From Paraglomus brasilianum (lineage: Eukaryota), in contig CAJVPI010000101.1 in NCBI GenBank assembly GCA_910592345.1, forward strand, positions 1-54,160: a DNA stretch of 54,160 bases, in the 5' to 3' direction. The notes beneath the pieces are model-generated. The model had not been told where the DNA came from. It saw only the letters and a list, made by a program, of their open reading frames with translations, and ran no database searches. A program made the translations under genes and the position numbers. Shown one piece after another: positions 17,601-29,355 of this stretch; the stretch's first letter is position 1, and each line of letters starts with the position of its first letter.

Positions 17601-17679
17601 TAGTTTACTTATTTTTTTAAATACATATTATTATATTATTTTTATTGAGTATATAATTATTTTAATAGTATTTCTTTCC

Positions 17680-18560
17680 ATTAGGACCTTTGCCTATTAT
17701 TTCGTTCTCATCGAGAAGTAATTAATTTGTTCACATACTGCTTCATCTTGTATACCAAATAAATGCACTTTATGCTAATAAATTTTACTTACCGAATGGG
17801 GTATGTGATTTTGCGCTCAATTGTAATTGTAATGGGCAGTAGCATCAACGCTACAATAATCAGCTTTACCTCGTTATAAATTAATTTTCTCTATTGTTCT
17901 GCTAATTTTGTATCTTTGTTGTAATAGTTTCTTTCTAATTTAACCTTCACAAGATGTTCTTTGTAAATCTTTTGCTTCTTCTTCCTTATGAGCATTATAC
18001 TGTAAGCCGTTTCAAAAACGTTGGCACATGTCACATAAATCTGTTCTTGGACTCATGATTTGAATATAAGACGTCAATTGGTGCCATAACTTGCGGAATG
18101 CATCATACTTTAACAATTTCAACGTGCTATCGTTTTCTAGACCTGCAATAAAATCACAATAGACCGATTTGTAACTTGTTTTGGCTGGCAAAAATGTAAG
18201 CGATTGAGTAATTTCTACCGGGACTGGTAATCCATGAATTCCAGCATAATTCTCGAGAAAATTCTTCATGGTAGCAACAGTTATTTACATTACCATGAAT
18301 ACATGGTATTATGCCAGATGATGTGAATTTGACAATTCCTGACATCTTGAGATAAATTTTGGCAAAATGCATAATGCAATTCCAATAGTAAAAGGTTCTC
18401 TTCTTAGTACACATTTTCTTTTTAAGATGTAGACTGGCAGTTATCCCTCCACCATTCATTGTTTTCAGCTGGGCATTAAAAATATATCTTGTTCAGACCT
18501 AGAAAGAGCTTGAAAAGCTTCACACAACTCAGCAAACTTTTCTCATTTTGAGTAACCACA
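17680..18560 (-). mobile_element. Degenerate Sola-like (DUF7869-type) DNA transposase fragment
   Basis: NFLENYAGIHGLPVP...FRKLWHQL..YIQIMSPRTDLCDMC, followed by broken AQN.HIPH, KVHLFGIQDEA...QINY and ENEIIGKGPNG; frameshifts and stops. Confidence 0.6.
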
Positions 18561-19030
18561 AATGTGGCCTATCTCCAAGAAACATGTCATATTCAGTGCA
18601 GCCCTATATTAATATATTATATTCATTATTCTTCATATACAGATAATCTTATATATATAATTTTATCATTTAATAACAGTCTTGAACATGCGTTTTATTT
18701 ATGTTGCAAATTTTGTCTACATGTTGGTTTACTATTACCAATTATAACTATGGTACTGGCTTTAAGTAAAGAAACTTATTTGATACAAATATAACATTAA
18801 AACATAAAACATAAAACATACATGCCAAGTTACAAATTAAACACAGAACTCTTTATTGATTCATCACACTTCATCTTTACTCATGGAGCTGCTAATACAA
18901 AAGTTAAACTCAAATCACTAAAAGAAAATGCCAATGGTAGTCTACTGATATATGCAAAGTATAGTTAGATATTTAGGTAAAATCTGTCAGTGATAATGTC
19001 TTTACATACCTTTTATTGGTCCACGCCTAC

Positions 19031-19198
19031 TGAGCACAGAACACCCACCCGGACGAACCATAAACCTGTGACGAAGAGACAGGCGTAGGGGAAGTGCCTA
19101 GACACATGCCTCACAAGATAGACAAGGCGTATAACGGTTCCAAAGGGTTTAGTCAAAGGTCGGGCAATACGCAAAGAGGACATGTGGCCCTGTGTTCA
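19031..19198. repeat. Structured element copy 1 (candidate ncRNA domain)
   Basis: Terminal stem TGAGCACAG/CTGTGTTCA; core blocks 19042-19093 and 19134-19167 match copy 2. Confidence 0.85.
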
Positions 19199-19199
19199 T

Positions 19200-19383
19200 G
19201 CTGACAGCAAGAAGCACCCACCCGGACGAACCATAAACCTGCGACGAAGAGACAGGCGTAGGGGAAATGCCGAAGACACTGTATCTCCAAAGCTTCGAAG
19301 CTTGGGCAGTTCACGGTTCCAAAGGGTTTAGTCAGAGGTCGGGCAAACTTGCAAAGATAACATGTGCCTCTCCTGCTGTCAGC
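19200..19383. repeat. Structured element copy 2 (candidate ncRNA domain)
   Basis: Terminal stem GCTGACAGCA/TGCTGTCAGC; core blocks 19215-19266 (51/52 identical to copy 1) and 19313-19346 (33/34). Confidence 0.85.
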
Positions 19384-19521
19384 GGCGAGGTGGACATTAA
19401 AACAAAGAAAATCTGTTGATGGCGCGAAAATTTTTATTGCGCGCAATAATGTTTGTTGATCATGTGATAACAATATGTAACTGAGACGGCGCGAGCCTAA
19501 GCCCTCGTGTTTCTCATTACT

Positions 19522-21916
19522 ATGGAGATTGATAACAGGCTTAACTATCAAGTTCCTTACCAAGTGGAGAAAGTTGATAGATTTTTCAAAGATAATAAAC
19601 TGAAAGTTTGGGGTGACTATAAGACTTTTATTCAAACAAAGTTTGTTACTGGACACTACACCACCGCTCGTGCTATACATGGGCGATACTGTGGTTCATT
19701 GCTTGCCATTCAACAAAATGAAAGAGTAGGAGATGAAGTGAAAAAATATTGCGCCGACCTATACAAGGAAGCCAATGTACGTATGTAGACAGCCTGTGTT
19801 GAAAAAGCACGCGTCCTTATTTCCCACTTCTATGTAGACAAGTCGGAAAAGCGATTTCCTCTTATTAGTAGAGAATGTTATTGAATGCAAGCAAATAGAA
19901 CAAAACATTGAATCTATCCGGGTAAGCTTTGAAGGTAAACAAATCCTCTACATCGACAACATTTGAACACGTGAATTTGTATACTGTATAGGACAAAATT
20001 ACAAGAAAAGCAACGGAAGTCAGCGGTGAAATAGTAGATGATTCGTTGAAACAGTGGAGACCTTCTAAGAAACCCAAAACCGTTGATCAGTTGGAAGATT
20101 CTGATACTCAGGACAAGATAGCAGATATCACCAACACGTATGATGAGCTGTATAGGTTATACTATTCTTTACTTGCCAACAATCTTTGTCTCATGTATAT
20201 TCCCTCCGCACGTGAAAGGTCATTGCAAACAGATACAATTGAACTGCCACAGACTCCTCCCTCCAACCTGATTGATGCTGTTGACAGTGAGGAGGACGAA
20301 AGCATCCATTCAGAAGAATATCAAGCTGGAAGTGATGATGAAGATGGAAATACGCACATTGATGTTAATACCATATCATTTGATGATGCAGTAAATGAAA
20401 TACGTAACCCAAGCTGGACTCTCAAAGACGGCCGTCTACTCGTTGATGTGCTTGTGACCAATACCACTGAGTTGGTAAGACAGCTCATGCAAAAAAGCCA
20501 GAAAGAAAGAACACCTGCTCTCATGAGTGCTGCTCGGTATATGATGTCTTACTATTACTATATAAATGAAGAGCATGAATGGTTGCTTATTTTTGACACA
20601 GTTTAGGTCTTTCATCAATTGTCGATCTATCATCTGAATTTGAAGGTGGAATGTACAAGTGGTTTGGTCAAGACTGGGTAGATATCAAGGAAAAGGTGTA
20701 TGGAATGATAAATATGACACCATTATGTTTTGAAGGTGATGTAAAGAGTATTATTGACACAGTTGAAGATGTATGTGTATAATCTTGAGAGTCTGTGCAA
20801 GTCACTTTTCCTTTTAATAACTGTCATATTTGTAGATGTGCAACACATTCCGATATATTGATGCACGAACTTATCTGTATGAATTGCAGACCAGCAATCA
20901 TTCACCAATTGTTAAACAGATTGCAAATATTTACTTCATTGTGTATGTTGTCTAGTTTTGGTATTTGTCAGTATATCCTTGATAACTGCTCTGATGAACA
21001 TTTTGTTAGAATTTGTAAATTCATGAGAAACCCATTCATTTTTGTGAATGAATCTGGAAGACGTAAGGATCTCACTGAGATGGAATTTGTCATCAAAATG
21101 ATAGCACCTGTTTTTGATGAACTTTTTGCTGACATTTCAGATCTTGTAGAGCTTCGATGGTAATAGTAAGATATCACTGATCTTGATGTCACACATAATA
21201 TTTAATTTTAATTTTCATGTTTATAGGGGTGAGACAGTTACCCGTGCTGCCGTTCAACCAAGAAAGATTGATATGAGGATTGTCCACAGGACTCGACATA
21301 TTGAACTCAGTCACACAGAATGTGCAAGGCTTCTTACACCTGCAAAAGCTATTGGAGACCGCTCTAAGTGTTTACGGACACTAAAATGTGTGCTTGACAT
21401 GTATCTGGCAGAAGACATTTCAGATGATGCTGCAAATGATTCTACAATCATGGGGCTCCAATTTGCTGGTAAGATTTCAAGAGTTGGATTGTCAGCAAAT
21501 GTTAAAATGTTAATTATGTGGATTATCATCACATCAGGTCTTGAAGGACAAATCATAGGAATTGATTGTCTAGATGATGGTTTATACTTTGGTCTTGAGG
21601 GTCCCAAATTCAGATTTCCTGCACAACTGTCAAGTATAAAGGACCTCCGAAATACACTGGAAGCATTATTTTTCTTCAAAGTAAGGTCACATGTATGACT
21701 TGTGTGTGAGTTTTAGTTAATTGATGTATCCTTTTCTCTATCCAGGAAAATATTAATAGAAATGCCAAAGCACTACCTAATCCAACAGAGCAGGGCCACT
21801 TATATCAGAAAATTTTTCATGTCCACAGGGCACAAGCCAAGCATTTTAAAGTAGGTTTTACAAGGAAAACAAACTTCACTCCAAGTAAGCATAAGAAACA
21901 AATATTAATATTATAG
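19522..21916 (+). CDS. Multi-exon protein with acidic linker and C-terminal PD-(D/E)XK-like (Crinkler REase-type) nuclease domain; apparently intact
   Basis: GT-AG introns join frames into TEMEFVIKMIAP...ELRW-GE...RKIDMRIV...IELSHTECAR...DRSKCLRTLK...MGLQFAG...GLYFG...FRFP; motif order fits an REase fold with the Lys relocated. Confidence 0.65.
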
Positions 21917-23087
21917 GAAGAGTTTGTTAGTTACTATAGGATGATAGTGAAAAACATTGCTAATCTATAGAATTATATTATCATTTTGTTCCTCAACCTA
22001 AACCATTACTTGTCAATGGACTATATTAAAGAACAGAGTCCCCAATAAAATTGGGATTTCATGTAGAATTAGAATTGCAAAACAAAAAATCATACTGATG
22101 AATGTCACTCTACTGTATGTTTGTCTCCGTTGGTAATTGTTGAGATATACAAGTTTATTTGCGCGCCATTTTTTTCGCAACACACTGTATACTCTCCATC
22201 GGCCATTCTATACTATCCGTAATAATTATAAAATACATAACAATCAAATAAAAATTACAACACTTCAGATCTAATCGCTACTCTTAATGGCCTATTAATT
22301 TCGTTAATATATATTTTAGGGAATTAATAATATCGCTGTTTCATCATACAGATAATATATCACCGAAGGTCAGGTTCAACAGATGTTCCTAGTAAAACGT
22401 AGCGGACGAAGAAATGCCGCTCATATATAAAATATCTAATACCCATTATATATTATATCGTAGATATTATCTCGTTAATGAAGGTTAGTTTCAACCTCAG
22501 CATTAATATTTCTCTTTCCACACTGTAATGCTCCGATTGGATTTTCATCAAGAGTATCCGCATTTCGCTTCGTGTCTCTATCACACTCTATGGCTCTTAA
22601 CGTTTTGGCATAGGTTCCCTTCATTGACGAATAACAATTTAACTTGAACATAATAACGATAAATTCACAATAACCAATAACGATGGATTCACAATAACTT
22701 TTTGTTGTATATTACGAGTATTAGCCTTCTAACGAATATATTAAACTCTCGGTAATATACATTGTCTTTATTATTACGAACGCCTTTCCTGTGTTAAATA
22801 TAATCGCTTCCCTTATTAGTCGCCAAAATGTTACAACAAAGCATACTCTGTTACTGGTCTTATTAATCGCGAAGAACTTACATGCAAAGTGTCAGTTCAG
22901 AGAATAATATAATAACTGAATACTTTTCATGCCCTGCTTATTAATCGCCATGATTTTATAACATGTCTTATTAGAGAACAAATAATACATTATGATTTAA
23001 CAATACATCATTACACAAACTGTTTCACATGACGCCGCTGAAAATTGTGTCGCTAGTAAATTCTTCTCAACCTTACAACACCAAAGG

Positions 23088-24048
23088 ATGATTAAATCCG
23101 TGCTAATATTCAACAACCATGGCAGATCACGCTTGATCAAGTTCTATCAACAAATAGTAAGTGGCTTATACTATCATAACTCAGGCTATGGGTGAGCTCA
23201 GGTTGACTCTGATATACTTTTAGGACATTCCAACCCAGCAAAACCTAATTCAAGAGATATTTCAACTCGTTTCCAAACGCCCAGATTCTGTCTGTAATTT
23301 TCTAGAAGGAAGTCAAATGCTTGGTGGCAGCGACACTCGAGTCATTTACCGACACTATGCGACTTTATATTTTGTGTTTGTTGTTGACGAATCTGAGAGT
23401 GAATTAGGAATTCTCGATTTGATACAAGTGAGTGGAAAAGAGGAAGAAGGCAGAATTTATGTGATGTGCAAAAGGATCCATTACAAATGATGTGCGTGTA
23501 TTTAGGTTTTCGTAGAGGGTCTTGACAGGTGTTTTGAGAACGTTTGCGAGCTTGATCTGGTGAGTCATGTCACATTCCCATATTGTACCCGTTGATAAAT
23601 CGTAAGATGGCTAAATAAAGTTTTGTCTCCGAATCTTTCTAGATCTTTCATTTTGAAGAAGTAAGTTATTTACGGCCAATCACTTGTTTGATACAGTAAT
23701 TCGATTTGACATTTGACTATTCATAGGTGCATCACATACTCGCCGAAGTGGTGTCCGGTGGGATGGCAAGTACAAAAAGCTTTTGAAAATAACATAGGGT
23801 CTTTTGTCTTTCGCTCTTCTAATAATTGTTTGTTTCCAATTTAGGTCTTGGAAACGAACTTGAACGAAATTATTACTGCTGCGAACGAATCAAATAATAA
23901 AGTCAAAAAGCGCGTGGGAGCAATGGCTTCGATTACAAAAAGTAGCGCTGGTGCCGTTGCGCGTGATTTAGGTGCAAATATTGCCAATACTGCTACCAAT
24001 GTTTTACAGAGCACTATGAGCGCGACATTGCGACGTACTGGGTTTTAG
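23088..24048 (+). CDS. APS3: AP-3 adaptor complex subunit sigma, 6 exons including an 18-nt exon (23643-23660) and a GC-AG intron
   Basis: MIKSVLIFNNHGRSRLIKFY...VSKRPDSVCNFLEG...YRHYATLYFVFVVDESESELGILDLIQVFVEGLDRCFENVCELDLIFHFEEVH...GGMVLETN. Confidence 0.93.
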
Positions 24049-24839
24049 TTCAAATCTTAAACTTTGTGGATTCTGGTTGGGAATCGTTGCGTTGATCAAT
24101 GTATTATATATGTATGGCGCATTTAGAAAAATACGGAGGGAGTGGTGATTAGTAGAAACAATGTAATTTATGCATTTCAATTATAGACTATGCAGAGTGA
24201 ATTGAATAAATAACGTCTAAATCTAATTTCTGAACATTTAGACTGAAATATTAACAATTGCATCGATATACGTAATAATTATATGGCGGTTGATAACCAA
24301 CACTACTCTACTCCCAGCCCTCTCTCTTAGACATTGCAAGCCACCGATTGGGATCTTGCACATGTTACAGTATACTCGTTTTAAATAATACTTTCATCAA
24401 TAAATGGCTCAGAACTCCCGGCAATGTTTTATCGCTTTCACCAATTTTTGGTGCAATATACCCTCTTTTTGATTGACCCGGAAGTTGATGCTGTTATTAG
24501 TAAAGCTTTAATACCCTAAAACTCTAACCAAAATTATGATTTGGTTAGAAAAAGTGAAACAGGCAGCAAATTACACCCCGCATCCGACGACATCAGTTTA
24601 ATACAATTATCACACGAGCCGGATCAATTTTTACTTTGTGATTTATTTACTATATTGCAAGCTTTTCTGATATCTAGATAGCAGTGTGTGCGAATATCTC
24701 TCTCAAGACTTGTCTTGCGCTTACTAATTAGTAGTGTAAACCATGATTGATGATAAAGCTCTAAATGTAATTATATAAATATTGTTGTGCTAGTCAAATG
24801 CTACATGTTTCAGAATACTTACAAGAGTTTGTAAACATT

Positions 24840-25600: not shown

Positions 25601-25974
25601 TGTGTCTGTAAGTGGGCGAGTTTAATTACACAAGAAAAAGGGCATGCTAATGCGCGATTATAATTATTATGACTGGATGCTGAATAATTTGCTAAATATG
25701 GACTTTGATTAAAATATAAAAGCCGAAGCCGTATTGGGGATTTCTGTCGCTTTTATCAAATAAAGTTTGTGCATCTTATAGTGTTAAATTTTGCAAGGTA
25801 CAAGTCACAGGAAGTATATATGCCGGGCGTTCAAAATTTCCGCGCACGGGGTATATTTATATTTACGCTAGCTGATGGGGTTAGAGAATAAAATCTGATC
25901 AACCAATGAAAGGTCATGGATTTTCCTGAAACACGCGTTGTATTTATGAGAACTCGCGGCACAAAAACTGGCCC

Positions 25975-28020
25975 ATGCAATCGTTGCTCTGCACAGAAAG
26001 AACAATAAAGGCCCTACTATTGAAAATACAACCGCCGGCAAGTGACGATGACTTGAATCAGTTGATAGAAAGTGACAGAGAAAATGAAGAACTTATCTAT
26101 GAATTATGTGGTCTTGAAGGAGAAGAGCATAGCCATGTTCAATTTTCGCGGAGCAGCACAGATTCAATAGTATGGCATGCTAAAATGCCAGAGTCTTGGA
26201 CATTCCGCGAAAAGCGCTAGCGAGATTGGCGAAAACGGTGGTGGTGCCCTATGTTGCACCCGTCGTAGGATTTTCAGACAAATCATGTATCAAATGTTCG
26301 CCGTTTGCGAAAAATGAGGCAGCGACTCCCATTATCGAGGATATCTGAACATTTAGTACATATATCAGATAAGCAGTGATGAACTTGTTGAGATGCCACT
26401 ACATGGAATTGAAGCTGGATCAAAATACTATTGGGAACTGAACAAACTTTATATAAACACAAAGGCCGACCAACCTTACGGATGTGCCTATTCTGTTCCC
26501 AAAGAATCGAACGACAACATAAGCGCCCTTGTGATCAACCCGTACAACGAATCAGTGAAGTATGACCAGCCATTGAACGATTTCCTTGTAATGGAAAAAT
26601 CAAAATAAACCTTTGAGACAAGCCAATCTTACGTTCAATCACTTATACCATCAACAACCAACTTACCGCGAAACTAAACTCAAGTAACAATAAATTGGAT
26701 CAAAACAAATCTAAACCATAATCTGCGCAAGGCAGAATTTCATAAAAGCTTTCTGAGAAGCTGATAGATCTAACAAACACACTTATCATCAAGTGTACTA
26801 TTGGGCACGCACTCAACTTTCTTGCTGGGACAATATATAACAAATATAAAGATTATATGCAGCGACCTGAACTAATCAATGTGGGTTATAAACTAATCCT
26901 TCATATTGAAAATGATTTTGTTCGAGCACTTGGATTTACCACGCCTTTCATAAACGGCATTTCAAAGGACAACATTAACGAACTTATTATTGATTCCCAA
27001 TTCAAAAATTGCACGATGAGGTTGGTTTTGTGAATGAACAATAGGGAAACGATGATTGAAATACGCTTATGCAAAGAACAGAGCGAAAGACAGGAGTTTG
27101 CCTTAATAATTAATTGTGGAGGATTCGGAATGCCGCAAAATCCTATATATAACATTAATAATCGCGTTATGGTTCTTACAGCAAACATTCAATTATGTCT
27201 CTAGATAGTTTTCTATGTGTAAGCATTATCTTCTTCATATCTTCAAACTTCTCATTTGATATAAACCATCCTTCCCAAGTTGCGTAGCAGCGTCACTTAT
27301 CCGGATGTTCTTCTTTAGATATCTGGCATATTGAACGTGCTATTGATCGTAAAATAAACGAAAAAAATCACAAATCTCAATTCCGCGTGCAAGGGAGGCA
27401 AATGAACAAATCACCTTTATTGATCCGAACTGGATTCCTACAGGAAGACGAAGCGTTGTTAAATTAAGTTTCCTTATTTTGATGCTTCAGGCAAAGAGTT
27501 TTTCTGTCGAATACGATGGACAAATATTGGATCCGGAACTGCTCCTCGTAGAGACCGAAAAGAAATATGATGTTGAAAGTAGTGAGCATCCGTCTAAGCA
27601 GATGCAATGGCAGTTATGGACTTGATAAAAAAACTTCATCCGCTAATACCAGTAGATATAAATGTATTTCTTACATCCGACGAAATATATAACCGCCGCA
27701 CGTCTGAGGTCTCAATATTGTCGACAGAGAAATCTTGTTCACTTATGGGCGTATCTATGGATGAACTGGTATAGTAAGAAAAATTGGAAGCTTTTCGCTC
27801 GATCATCCTATCCAAGAGCCATGCTTATAGCAAGAACGACAATTATAGTTGAATCACATTAAACACAATTACAAATATAATTATAACAGACCTCGTCTCG
27901 ATCATTTAATAACAGGACGCCTGATCCCAGACATGTTGAACACCCTTGGCAATTATACAAAAACAATCGATCATATCCATCTTGGTGGAAAGCCTTCAAA
28001 GTTAGCCTTCTGGTTAAGAT
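25975..28020 (+). mobile_element. Degenerate MULE/Mutator-like transposase
   Basis: Fragments IWHIERAIDRKI (CxWH-type motif) and LWAYLWMNWYSKKNWKLFARS...RTTIIVESH followed by NRPRLDHL; many stops and frameshifts. Confidence 0.6.
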
Positions 28021-29355
28021 GATTCTTTTATACATACCATGTTTAAAATTTTAATAAATACAGTATTATTATTACATTGATTGGTATAGTGTATTATTAT
28101 TATTATTACGATATACACATGCTCTCGATGATTAAAGATCTTGCACGTGGCTGTGTGGCTTACAGTCACGTTACACATATTAAGGTCACACGCACAACAA
28201 ATTCTCCGAAAATCAAAGTACGTGATTGCTATACACTTTCACTCAACGCGCGGGCCATGAAGTGACATGATCAATTCTCTTCTTTACATTGACGCGTCCC
28301 CAGCTTTGCCCACGACAATCGAAACTAAATACTAATAACGACAAGGACCATGAAAACTTCCATTTGTGAAGACATCATAATAGGTCAGCCTCTAATAAAT
28401 CTAGTCTTTCCTTGCCTGGTTTTTCATTAAGAATCGGTTCATCTAACAAACTCCGCTCTATTCTTTTGTCAAATGTTTATTTTACTTTGCTCATAAGTTT
28501 AATGCTGGTTTGTTCTTTGCATCAATCGCTCGAAGAAGTTATGCCTGGGCGTGTCCGTAGTCTCGCAGTTGAATTTTGCAGTCAAACAGTTACAAACGCA
28601 TTTAATTATCCTAATTAGTTTGAAGTCTGTCAATAATGGCTTGATAGAAGTGATTCCTAAAGGGTTTTTTGTGTTTAGACATTTGAAGTCTGTATAATAT
28701 ATGATTCCATGTACATAATTTAAACGACAGAGATGCTTCTTCAATCATTATACCAAACGATTCTCATCAAGAACGCTTCTATCAGCATAACTAATTTCAT
28801 TGTTCATTTACTACGGATATATCATACAATAAGTTAACCGGATGATCTTTGGTTAGTTTGAATAAAAATTTAAGAGAGCGCTTGCCTTTGCTAACGACTT
28901 GTGACATTAGGATTTGAAACTATTTCTTCTTGGCAAATAGCAAGCATTAATATTAATGGCATAATATAAGTGAGAAATAAACTGACTACAGCAATCATGG
29001 GCTATAAATACTCCGTCCTTCTTACTGAGATTGATATCACAAGATAGCTCTGTTAACTCAAACTTCCGTTAATGAGAGACTATGGCACGATCAAAAACGC
29101 ATGAGAACAAGACTCCAAACAATATATTCACGGCAATGGTAATGATAATAGGAAACAGGAGCCAAATAGACTAAATAATTTAATCGATAGGATGCATTTC
29201 CAGAATAATTGCGGTAATTAAAATTAAAGGGTCTTCAATTTAGTATTAATTAATATACGCAACATCGAGTATTATCTGTTCGAAGCTAACCTAGAATGCT
29301 TGATCAGGCGGAAATTCCAAAGACTTTCGTCTGTTGCAGTGTGTACAAATCATAT

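Follow-up and report, generated by a model that had tools for sequence, protein, structure and literature searches.

A duplicated, transcribed RNA element beside a nuclease-like gene of Paraglomus brasilianum

The locus studied here lies in a 54,160-nt stretch of the Paraglomus brasilianum genome (contig CAJVPI010000101.1; "the window" below). A tandem pair of GC-rich units stands just upstream of a gene with nuclease-like motifs, and the question is whether the pair belongs to that gene. The initial annotation allowed that it might be a dedicated RNA partner of the nuclease (guide, scaffold or antitoxin), a 5' leader or ribozyme, or the origin of a nuclease-encoding selfish element. We describe a real, expressed and unclassified element, for which a new RNA is a likelier explanation than membership of a nuclease module.

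The duplicated element and its transcript

The double element is real. It comprises roughly 380 nt in two tandem units of about 175 nt (repeat families D6 and D11; alignment), joined by a hinge of 1 nt and 81% identical over 163 nt (BLAST). A covariance model made from both units, whose matches to those units are given by construction, scored them at 227 and 155 bits, with the next best match in the whole window at 8.8. The tandem arrangement first proposed is borne out by the repeat families, the alignment and the two strong model matches; so is its placement about 125 nt before the ATG at 19522, the outer stem stopping at 19395, 126 nt short of it. GC content is 54% in the element, 26% in the left flank and 38% in the right flank, and the plus strand of the element contains 113 A, 62 T, 106 G and 96 C. 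The core halves of the units are identical at 55/57 and 49/56 positions, the internal arm at 22/42 and the closing strands at 10/16 and 10/17. The coordinates of all features are collected in Table 1.

Table 1 Features of the locus, in positions of the window. +, plus strand; -, minus strand.
Feature	Position	Strand	Remarks
Broken transposase-like remnant	17660..18650, ends approximate	-	many stops and frame changes; from translation
Start of exon 2 of minus-strand transcript, AT-rich	18912..18941	-	spliced RNA contig
Spliceosomal intron, 68 nt	18942..19009	-	donor GTATGT, CTAAC branch-like site, AG acceptor
Twin-domain element	19019..19395	-	outer stem 19019-19027 with 19384-19395, 3-nt bulge; predicted Y shape
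Unit 1 (3' unit on minus strand)	19031..19198	-	9-bp closing stem, unlike unit 2 in sequence; core shared with unit 2
Unit 2 (5' unit on minus strand)	19200..19383	-	14-bp closing stem, conserved core, variable arm
Gap, 126 nt, putative two-way promoter	19396..19521		three GCGCG sites: 19422, 19439-40, 19489
Intact 9-exon gene, 621 aa	19522..21916	+	likely PD-(D/E)XK-type nuclease domain, C-terminal
Gene exons 1-5	19522-19776, 19838-19921, 19992-20536, 20602-20770, 20836-20942	+	
Gene exons 6-9	21010-21159, 21227-21468, 21538-21680, 21746-21916	+	

In the MFE folds of both strands, each unit is closed by a stem of its own and the outer stem closes both, giving a predicted three-way junction; the closing stems of the two units differ in sequence, yet both pair. 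Pair probabilities for the closing and outer stems are 0.67-0.97 on either strand (0.92-0.97 for the outer stem alone). Stems as stable were found in 0.4-1.5% of 5000 random 16-mer pairs for unit 1, in at most 0.04% of 5000 for unit 2 and in 0.3-1.0% of 3000 random draws for the outer stem, percentages that are optimistic because the stem boundaries were set after the fold had been seen. The whole element folds only modestly better than its shuffles (z of -1.8 on the plus strand and -1.4 on the minus strand; unit 1, -0.9 and -0.2; unit 2, -2.35 on both strands). The description of the pair as structured thus holds for the closing stems, which stand out against random pairs, and less well for the element as a whole, whose folding energy is modest.

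In the minus-strand model, one 3' strand of 21 nt could pair with any of four distinct 5' segments (80 of 81 cells paired), and the variable arm of unit 2 contains a hairpin at 19287-19305. Among the three sequences compared, 0 of 27 pairs of the core model showed two-sided changes, and helix probabilities are 0.01-0.04 for P3 and 0.27-0.29 for P4, with only P5 high at 0.73-0.99. The internal fold is a prediction that lacks covariation support, and a pseudoknot is a possible alternative to it. By eye, the 3' tail of the minus-strand RNA (19021-19030) could also form 7 bp with the conserved linker at 19080-19090 or 19253-19263; such pairing in place of the outer stem is a possible switch.

Of 24 sequencing runs listed, 20 carry part of the stretch (4 possible source; 15 soil or rhizosphere; 1 other organism); six runs are on record as RNA, and contigs from four of these six were examined. 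Contigs of the element occurred in all four (four studies), although the runs were chosen for carrying the element stretch, so that presence but not abundance can be read from them; five of the eight contigs lay on the element. One contig crosses it unspliced and may be DNA (X11 record 1). Another (X12 record 3; one contig of one run) joins 18941 to 19010 at a depth of 22 with no mismatches and a short side of 30 nt, the excised ends reading CT..AC. By this minus-strand GT-AG joint, the element is the first exon of a transcript directed away from the nuclease gene, with the intron donor 9 nt past the outer stem. The CTAAC of the intron lies 23 nt from its end, within the 15-27 nt range between branch site and acceptor in the introns of the neighbouring gene; the word itself is present in one of the nine introns, that of the element, and in none of the neighbour's eight.

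None of the five element contigs extends beyond 19372 or joins the nuclease gene (contigs cannot prove ends), and no contig bridges 19372-19656. The direction of the RNA rules against a leader of the nuclease mRNA, and with the one spliced contig on the minus strand this part of the initial annotation is not supported. Its more general proposal of a noncoding RNA fared better: a transcribed, conserved noncoding element is supported, whereas a dedicated guide or antitoxin is possible but has a low probability. Exon 1 contains seven ATGs that open frames of only 11-56 aa, which makes it a poor leader for scanning. A 180-codon minus-strand frame over the element was rejected as coding; it is mostly antisense to the gene, and indels of a homologue (-1, -1, +9) shift it.

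Base composition conflicts with splicing in the strand that it indicates. Most G-U pairs suit the minus strand: the closing stem of unit 2 has two of them, P3 three, P5 one and P7 one or two. One G-U pair in the unit-1 closing stem fits the plus strand, which is A-rich and T-poor; an H-type pseudoknot with 1-nt and A-rich 4-nt loops suits a plus-strand RNA better, and the outer and unit stems form equally well on that strand.

An exact-pattern scan of metagenomes returned one locus (L001), the same locus in another strain: it is 97.7% identical, covers unit 2 together with the gene's first exons, and differs at much the same rate within the element as beyond it. A diverged RNA homologue (X14 record 6), which the exact pattern would have missed, has 21 differing letters and 11 gap letters in some 200 nt and appears to span the junction of two units. 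Its changes mostly spare the core, and 9 nt are inserted where the arm hairpin has its apex; one P5 pair is broken (19229). Its closing stem, read by hand from the listed changes and eight loose end letters, would pair on the minus strand with one two-sided change, a tentative reading since changes near contig ends are not listed.

Searches for known classes were negative within their scope. Rfam gave no match in the window at gathering score and none in 18900-19530 at E 10. Simple, strict ribozyme descriptors (hammerhead, HDV-like, twister, pistol, hairpin) found no CUGANGA, no HDV fold and no pistol or hairpin motif on either strand, and one isolated twister-like word; within these descriptors and Rfam the ribozyme reading gained no support. 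The Sm site AU4-6G is absent from both strands of 18990-19420, and on the minus strand there is neither an ANANNA between the units (H/ACA) nor a box C (C/D). Viral contigs gave no match with any of four patterns, prokaryote genomes one chance 20-mer lacking the rest of the element, and a phage BLAST search nothing. Likenesses to riboswitches (TPP, cobalamin), to group I and lariat-capping ribozymes, and to RNase P/MRP, U4, Alu and an rRNA-antisense guide were considered and rejected, the defining order or pairs not being kept. In the literature searched, no account of structured noncoding RNAs, ribozymes or telomerase RNA in arbuscular mycorrhizal fungi was found, nor any of the present RNA; the accessible part of PMC5640933 mentions neither these fungi nor tandem motifs.

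The neighbouring gene and its surroundings

The neighbouring gene is intact, with eight GT-AG introns of 61-70 nt, one stop and no break, and its intron 1 is spliced on the plus strand in an RNA contig (X11 record 2). The intact multi-exon gene with E, WGE, KID, TECAR and DRSK motifs that had been described was recovered as such (621-aa numbering: EMEF 410, WGE 437, KID 450, TECAR 467, DRSK 481). The database model P0001 (724 aa) fuses the gene with a downstream clathrin adaptor small-chain gene (19522-24050) and omits 35 residues of exon 3, while the window's own frame stops at 21916; residue numbers in P0001 plus 35 give those of the 621-aa model.

One search returned 92 matches to the protein, the named ones all from Glomeromycota plus one Endogone, and a wider library held 404 clusters of the family at 50% identity. 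The family is multi-copy, with at least three members in Paraglomus brasilianum and several in P. occultum, Funneliformis, Gigaspora and Rhizophagus. N-termini vary across it, and the first 200 aa of our gene product had no BLAST match among 96 homologues. K415, D417, E433 and D446 (P0001 numbers) are invariant in 20 sequences at 19-26% identity; E39, D81, E97 and K113 are nearly invariant in a 68-sequence set; K449 is not among the conserved residues listed in the distant set. The invariant acidic residues and lysine would fit a PD-(D/E)XK site.

The structure model has a pLDDT of 60.7 (residues 109-179 below 50); that of full-length P0001, at 49, is unusable because P0001 is fused to another gene. 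Foldseek with the half-confident model gave no match. VIA ranked an unrelated structure best (Z 4.7), and 8 of the 50 matches listed were restriction or NucC nucleases (Z 2.4-3.9); the Atlas structure neighbours included a PDDEXK_12 cluster at TM 0.69, below the naming bar, and a cluster with 17% Crinkler members at TM 0.65. A sequence search of the PDB found nothing relevant, Pfam Crinkler and PDDEXK models matched neither P0001 nor 8 close or 29 further homologues, nor did any other Pfam family give the protein a name, and no fused homologues of more than 1120 aa were found. For a Crinkler N-terminal LFLAK/DWL header there was likewise no Pfam Crinkler match, the N-terminus being predicted helical with low confidence. 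A REase fold, as first proposed, is likely from the motifs and the weak structure matches.

The remnant at 17660..18650, presumably a transposase by motif likeness, runs in the same direction as the minus-strand transcript and is cut off near 17660 by AT-rich DNA. It has no Pfam match. No transposon ends surround the module among the 25 longest of 217 inverted repeats.

Further observations in the window are as follows. Positions 1-720 hold six or more 108-nt tandem repeats, partly frame-shifted, which resemble Sel1-type repeats. At 4960-5046, near a Gar1/Naf1-domain gene, lies an inverted repeat of 26 nt with 81% complementarity and a spacer of 35 nt, a possible intronic hairpin. Fragments at 8400-9250 (plus strand) have a YGIVTTG..W.F motif of the kind typical of Crinkler-type nuclease domains; they are unrelated to the nuclease family studied. 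Since a profile of that family matched only the gene at 19522..21916, the other nuclease-like remnants of the window fall outside it. Further broken coding remnants with cysteine clusters at 25650-28100 have no Pfam match and are probably mobile DNA. GCGCG words cluster in threes in two intergenic gaps (19422-19493 and 23910-24024), where they may be promoter elements; window-wide the word is not enriched (24 seen, 24.7 expected).

What the element may be

The reading we prefer, and to which we give about an even chance, is a stand-alone, lineage-restricted, twin-domain noncoding RNA that shares a short two-way promoter with the gene. The 126-nt gap is taken as that promoter because two transcripts appear to leave it in opposite directions. 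RNA polymerase II would start there, making the element leftwards and the nuclease gene rightwards; exon 1 would be almost exactly the folded unit, and the spliceosome would act 9 nt beyond the closing stem, exon 1 being either released as mature RNA, as in fungal telomerase RNAs, or joined to a short AT-rich exon. The RNA would fold as a Y whose two near-identical domains bind two copies of one partner, the two invariant cores serving as a two-handed protein scaffold, and the nuclease-like gene, one member of a scattered multi-copy family, would be a neighbour by position.

This reading is favoured because the exon end and the presumed start hug the outer stem, because the closing stems diverge yet pair while the cores are near-identical, and because the insertion in the diverged homologue sits at a hairpin apex; the minus strand is favoured because most G-U pairs fit it. 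It is weakened by the plus-strand composition, the unit-1 G-U pair and the pseudoknot geometry, which favour the plus strand; by the want of two-sided changes in the core and its low helix probabilities; by the P5 pair broken in the homologue; and by the lack of any signals (Sm, H/ACA, C/D) by which an RNP could be named. Being expressed, built of two domains with invariant cores and bordered by an intron, the element is a candidate for a novel class of RNA in arbuscular mycorrhizal fungi. Should it bind the neighbouring protein, it would be the first regulator for the large orphan nuclease-like families of these fungi.

We consider it unlikely that the element belongs instead, as a structured 5' leader, to the transposase-like gene, now decayed, that follows it on the minus strand, controlling 5'-UTR splicing or translation somewhat as a tandem riboswitch does. 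Fungal TPP riboswitches do control 5'-UTR splicing, the remnant is on the same strand and begins about 300 nt past the intron, and an ATG lies 57 nt into exon 2 of the transcript. That gene, however, has many breaks, whereas the element is transcribed and its stems are preserved; the seven upstream ATGs, the empty riboswitch search (Rfam, E 10) and the absence of an element end near the promoter gap (25 longest of 217 inverted repeats) also tell against it.

That the element is a dedicated partner of the nuclease (inhibitor, scaffold or guide), expressed together with it from the two-way promoter, appears to us quite unlikely. RNA and gene are both transcribed and the gene is intact; the 126-nt head-to-head spacing is kept in the second strain, although this is the same locus and not an independent association; and the first 200 aa, unmatched by BLAST in 96 homologues, leave room for a private partner. 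A guide role is argued against by the variable arms, which self-fold and match nothing elsewhere in the window. The protein family occurs across all Glomeromycota, whereas the exact motif was met at one metagenome locus, a weak objection as the pattern was blind to the diverged homologue. Beyond position, nothing ties the RNA to the protein. We are equally sceptical of a head-to-head cassette in which a spliceosome-cut twin-domain RNA binds two nuclease copies and restrains or aims the nuclease; no RNA partner of this fungal nuclease family would have been found before it.

It is improbable that the working RNA is the plus strand, as a transcript of its own or a long leader of the nuclease mRNA, with the spliced minus strand an antisense by-product. 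The A-rich, T-poor plus strand, the unit-1 G-U pair and the pseudoknot loops described above agree with it, and the stems are equally good there; the only strand-specific evidence points to the minus strand, which also suits more of the G-U pairs, and no contig bridges element and gene. We hold it very improbable that a GC-rich fragment of a mobile element was neutrally duplicated in tandem and is transcribed by read-through from a promoter: the modest folding z, the adjoining decayed DNA and the similar rates of difference inside and outside the element in the second strain would suit it, but the closing stems differ in sequence and each still pairs, the outer stem closes both units, the cores are far more alike than the arms and the homologue's insertion falls at an apex.

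To our knowledge, a telomerase RNA with two templates would be unprecedented. That the element is the telomerase RNA of this lineage, its core duplicated, we hardly credit: each minus-strand unit has CUAAACCCU, which would template TTTAGGG and is unchanged in four of four unit sequences, and an intron lies directly downstream as in the fungal telomerase RNAs treated in part of PMC4299874, but Rhizophagus telomeres are TTAGGG in the accessible text of bioRxiv 10.1101/2022.10.19.511543, there is no Sm site, and CUAAACCCU can be base-paired in the predicted pseudoknot.

Comparison with known systems

RNA-plus-nuclease modules include Fanzor with its omegaRNA, type III toxin-antitoxin systems, and lariat-capping ribozymes with homing nucleases. 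The locus shares with them a structured RNA beside a nuclease-type gene and differs in that its RNA lies on the strand opposite to the gene and is directed away from it; neither a segment resembling a guide nor a catalytic motif was found, nor element ends among the 25 longest of 217 inverted repeats. With the Crinkler-linked REase and PDDEXK_12-like proteins, as far as the available part of PMC6131194 describes them, the gene shares the pattern of helix-E, strand-D, strand-E and helix-D/K, and its family shares variable N-termini and multiple copies in mycorrhizal fungi. The gene product differs from them in having no Pfam Crinkler or PDDEXK match, and nothing indicates that it is secreted or has an RNA partner.

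Tandem riboswitches have two homologous domains in series. The element has two such domains as well, beside a 5' splice site as in TPP riboswitches, and a plus-strand stretch of it loosely resembles the P4/P5 half of the TPP riboswitch. Against a TPP riboswitch stand a change in the would-be P4 strand in the second strain, the lack of a metabolic gene downstream and the lack of an Rfam match.

The telomerase RNA of S. pombe, at 1,213 nt in the source consulted in part, is far longer than the element of about 380 nt, which is internally duplicated and has no Sm site. The template-like CUAAACCCU fits TTTAGGG and not TTAGGG, the known mycorrhizal repeat, given for Rhizophagus in the part available of bioRxiv 10.1101/2022.10.19.511543; a telomere repeat for Paraglomus was not found in the literature, and the TeloBase supplement has no mycorrhizal entry. 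The likeness lies in processing: according to the portion of PMC4299874 available, the spliceosome makes the 3' ends of fungal telomerase RNAs such as S. pombe TER1 and its relatives, and there as here an intron follows just past the folded body and spliced and unspliced forms occur, the branch site of the element's intron being stronger than those of the eight introns of the neighbouring gene.
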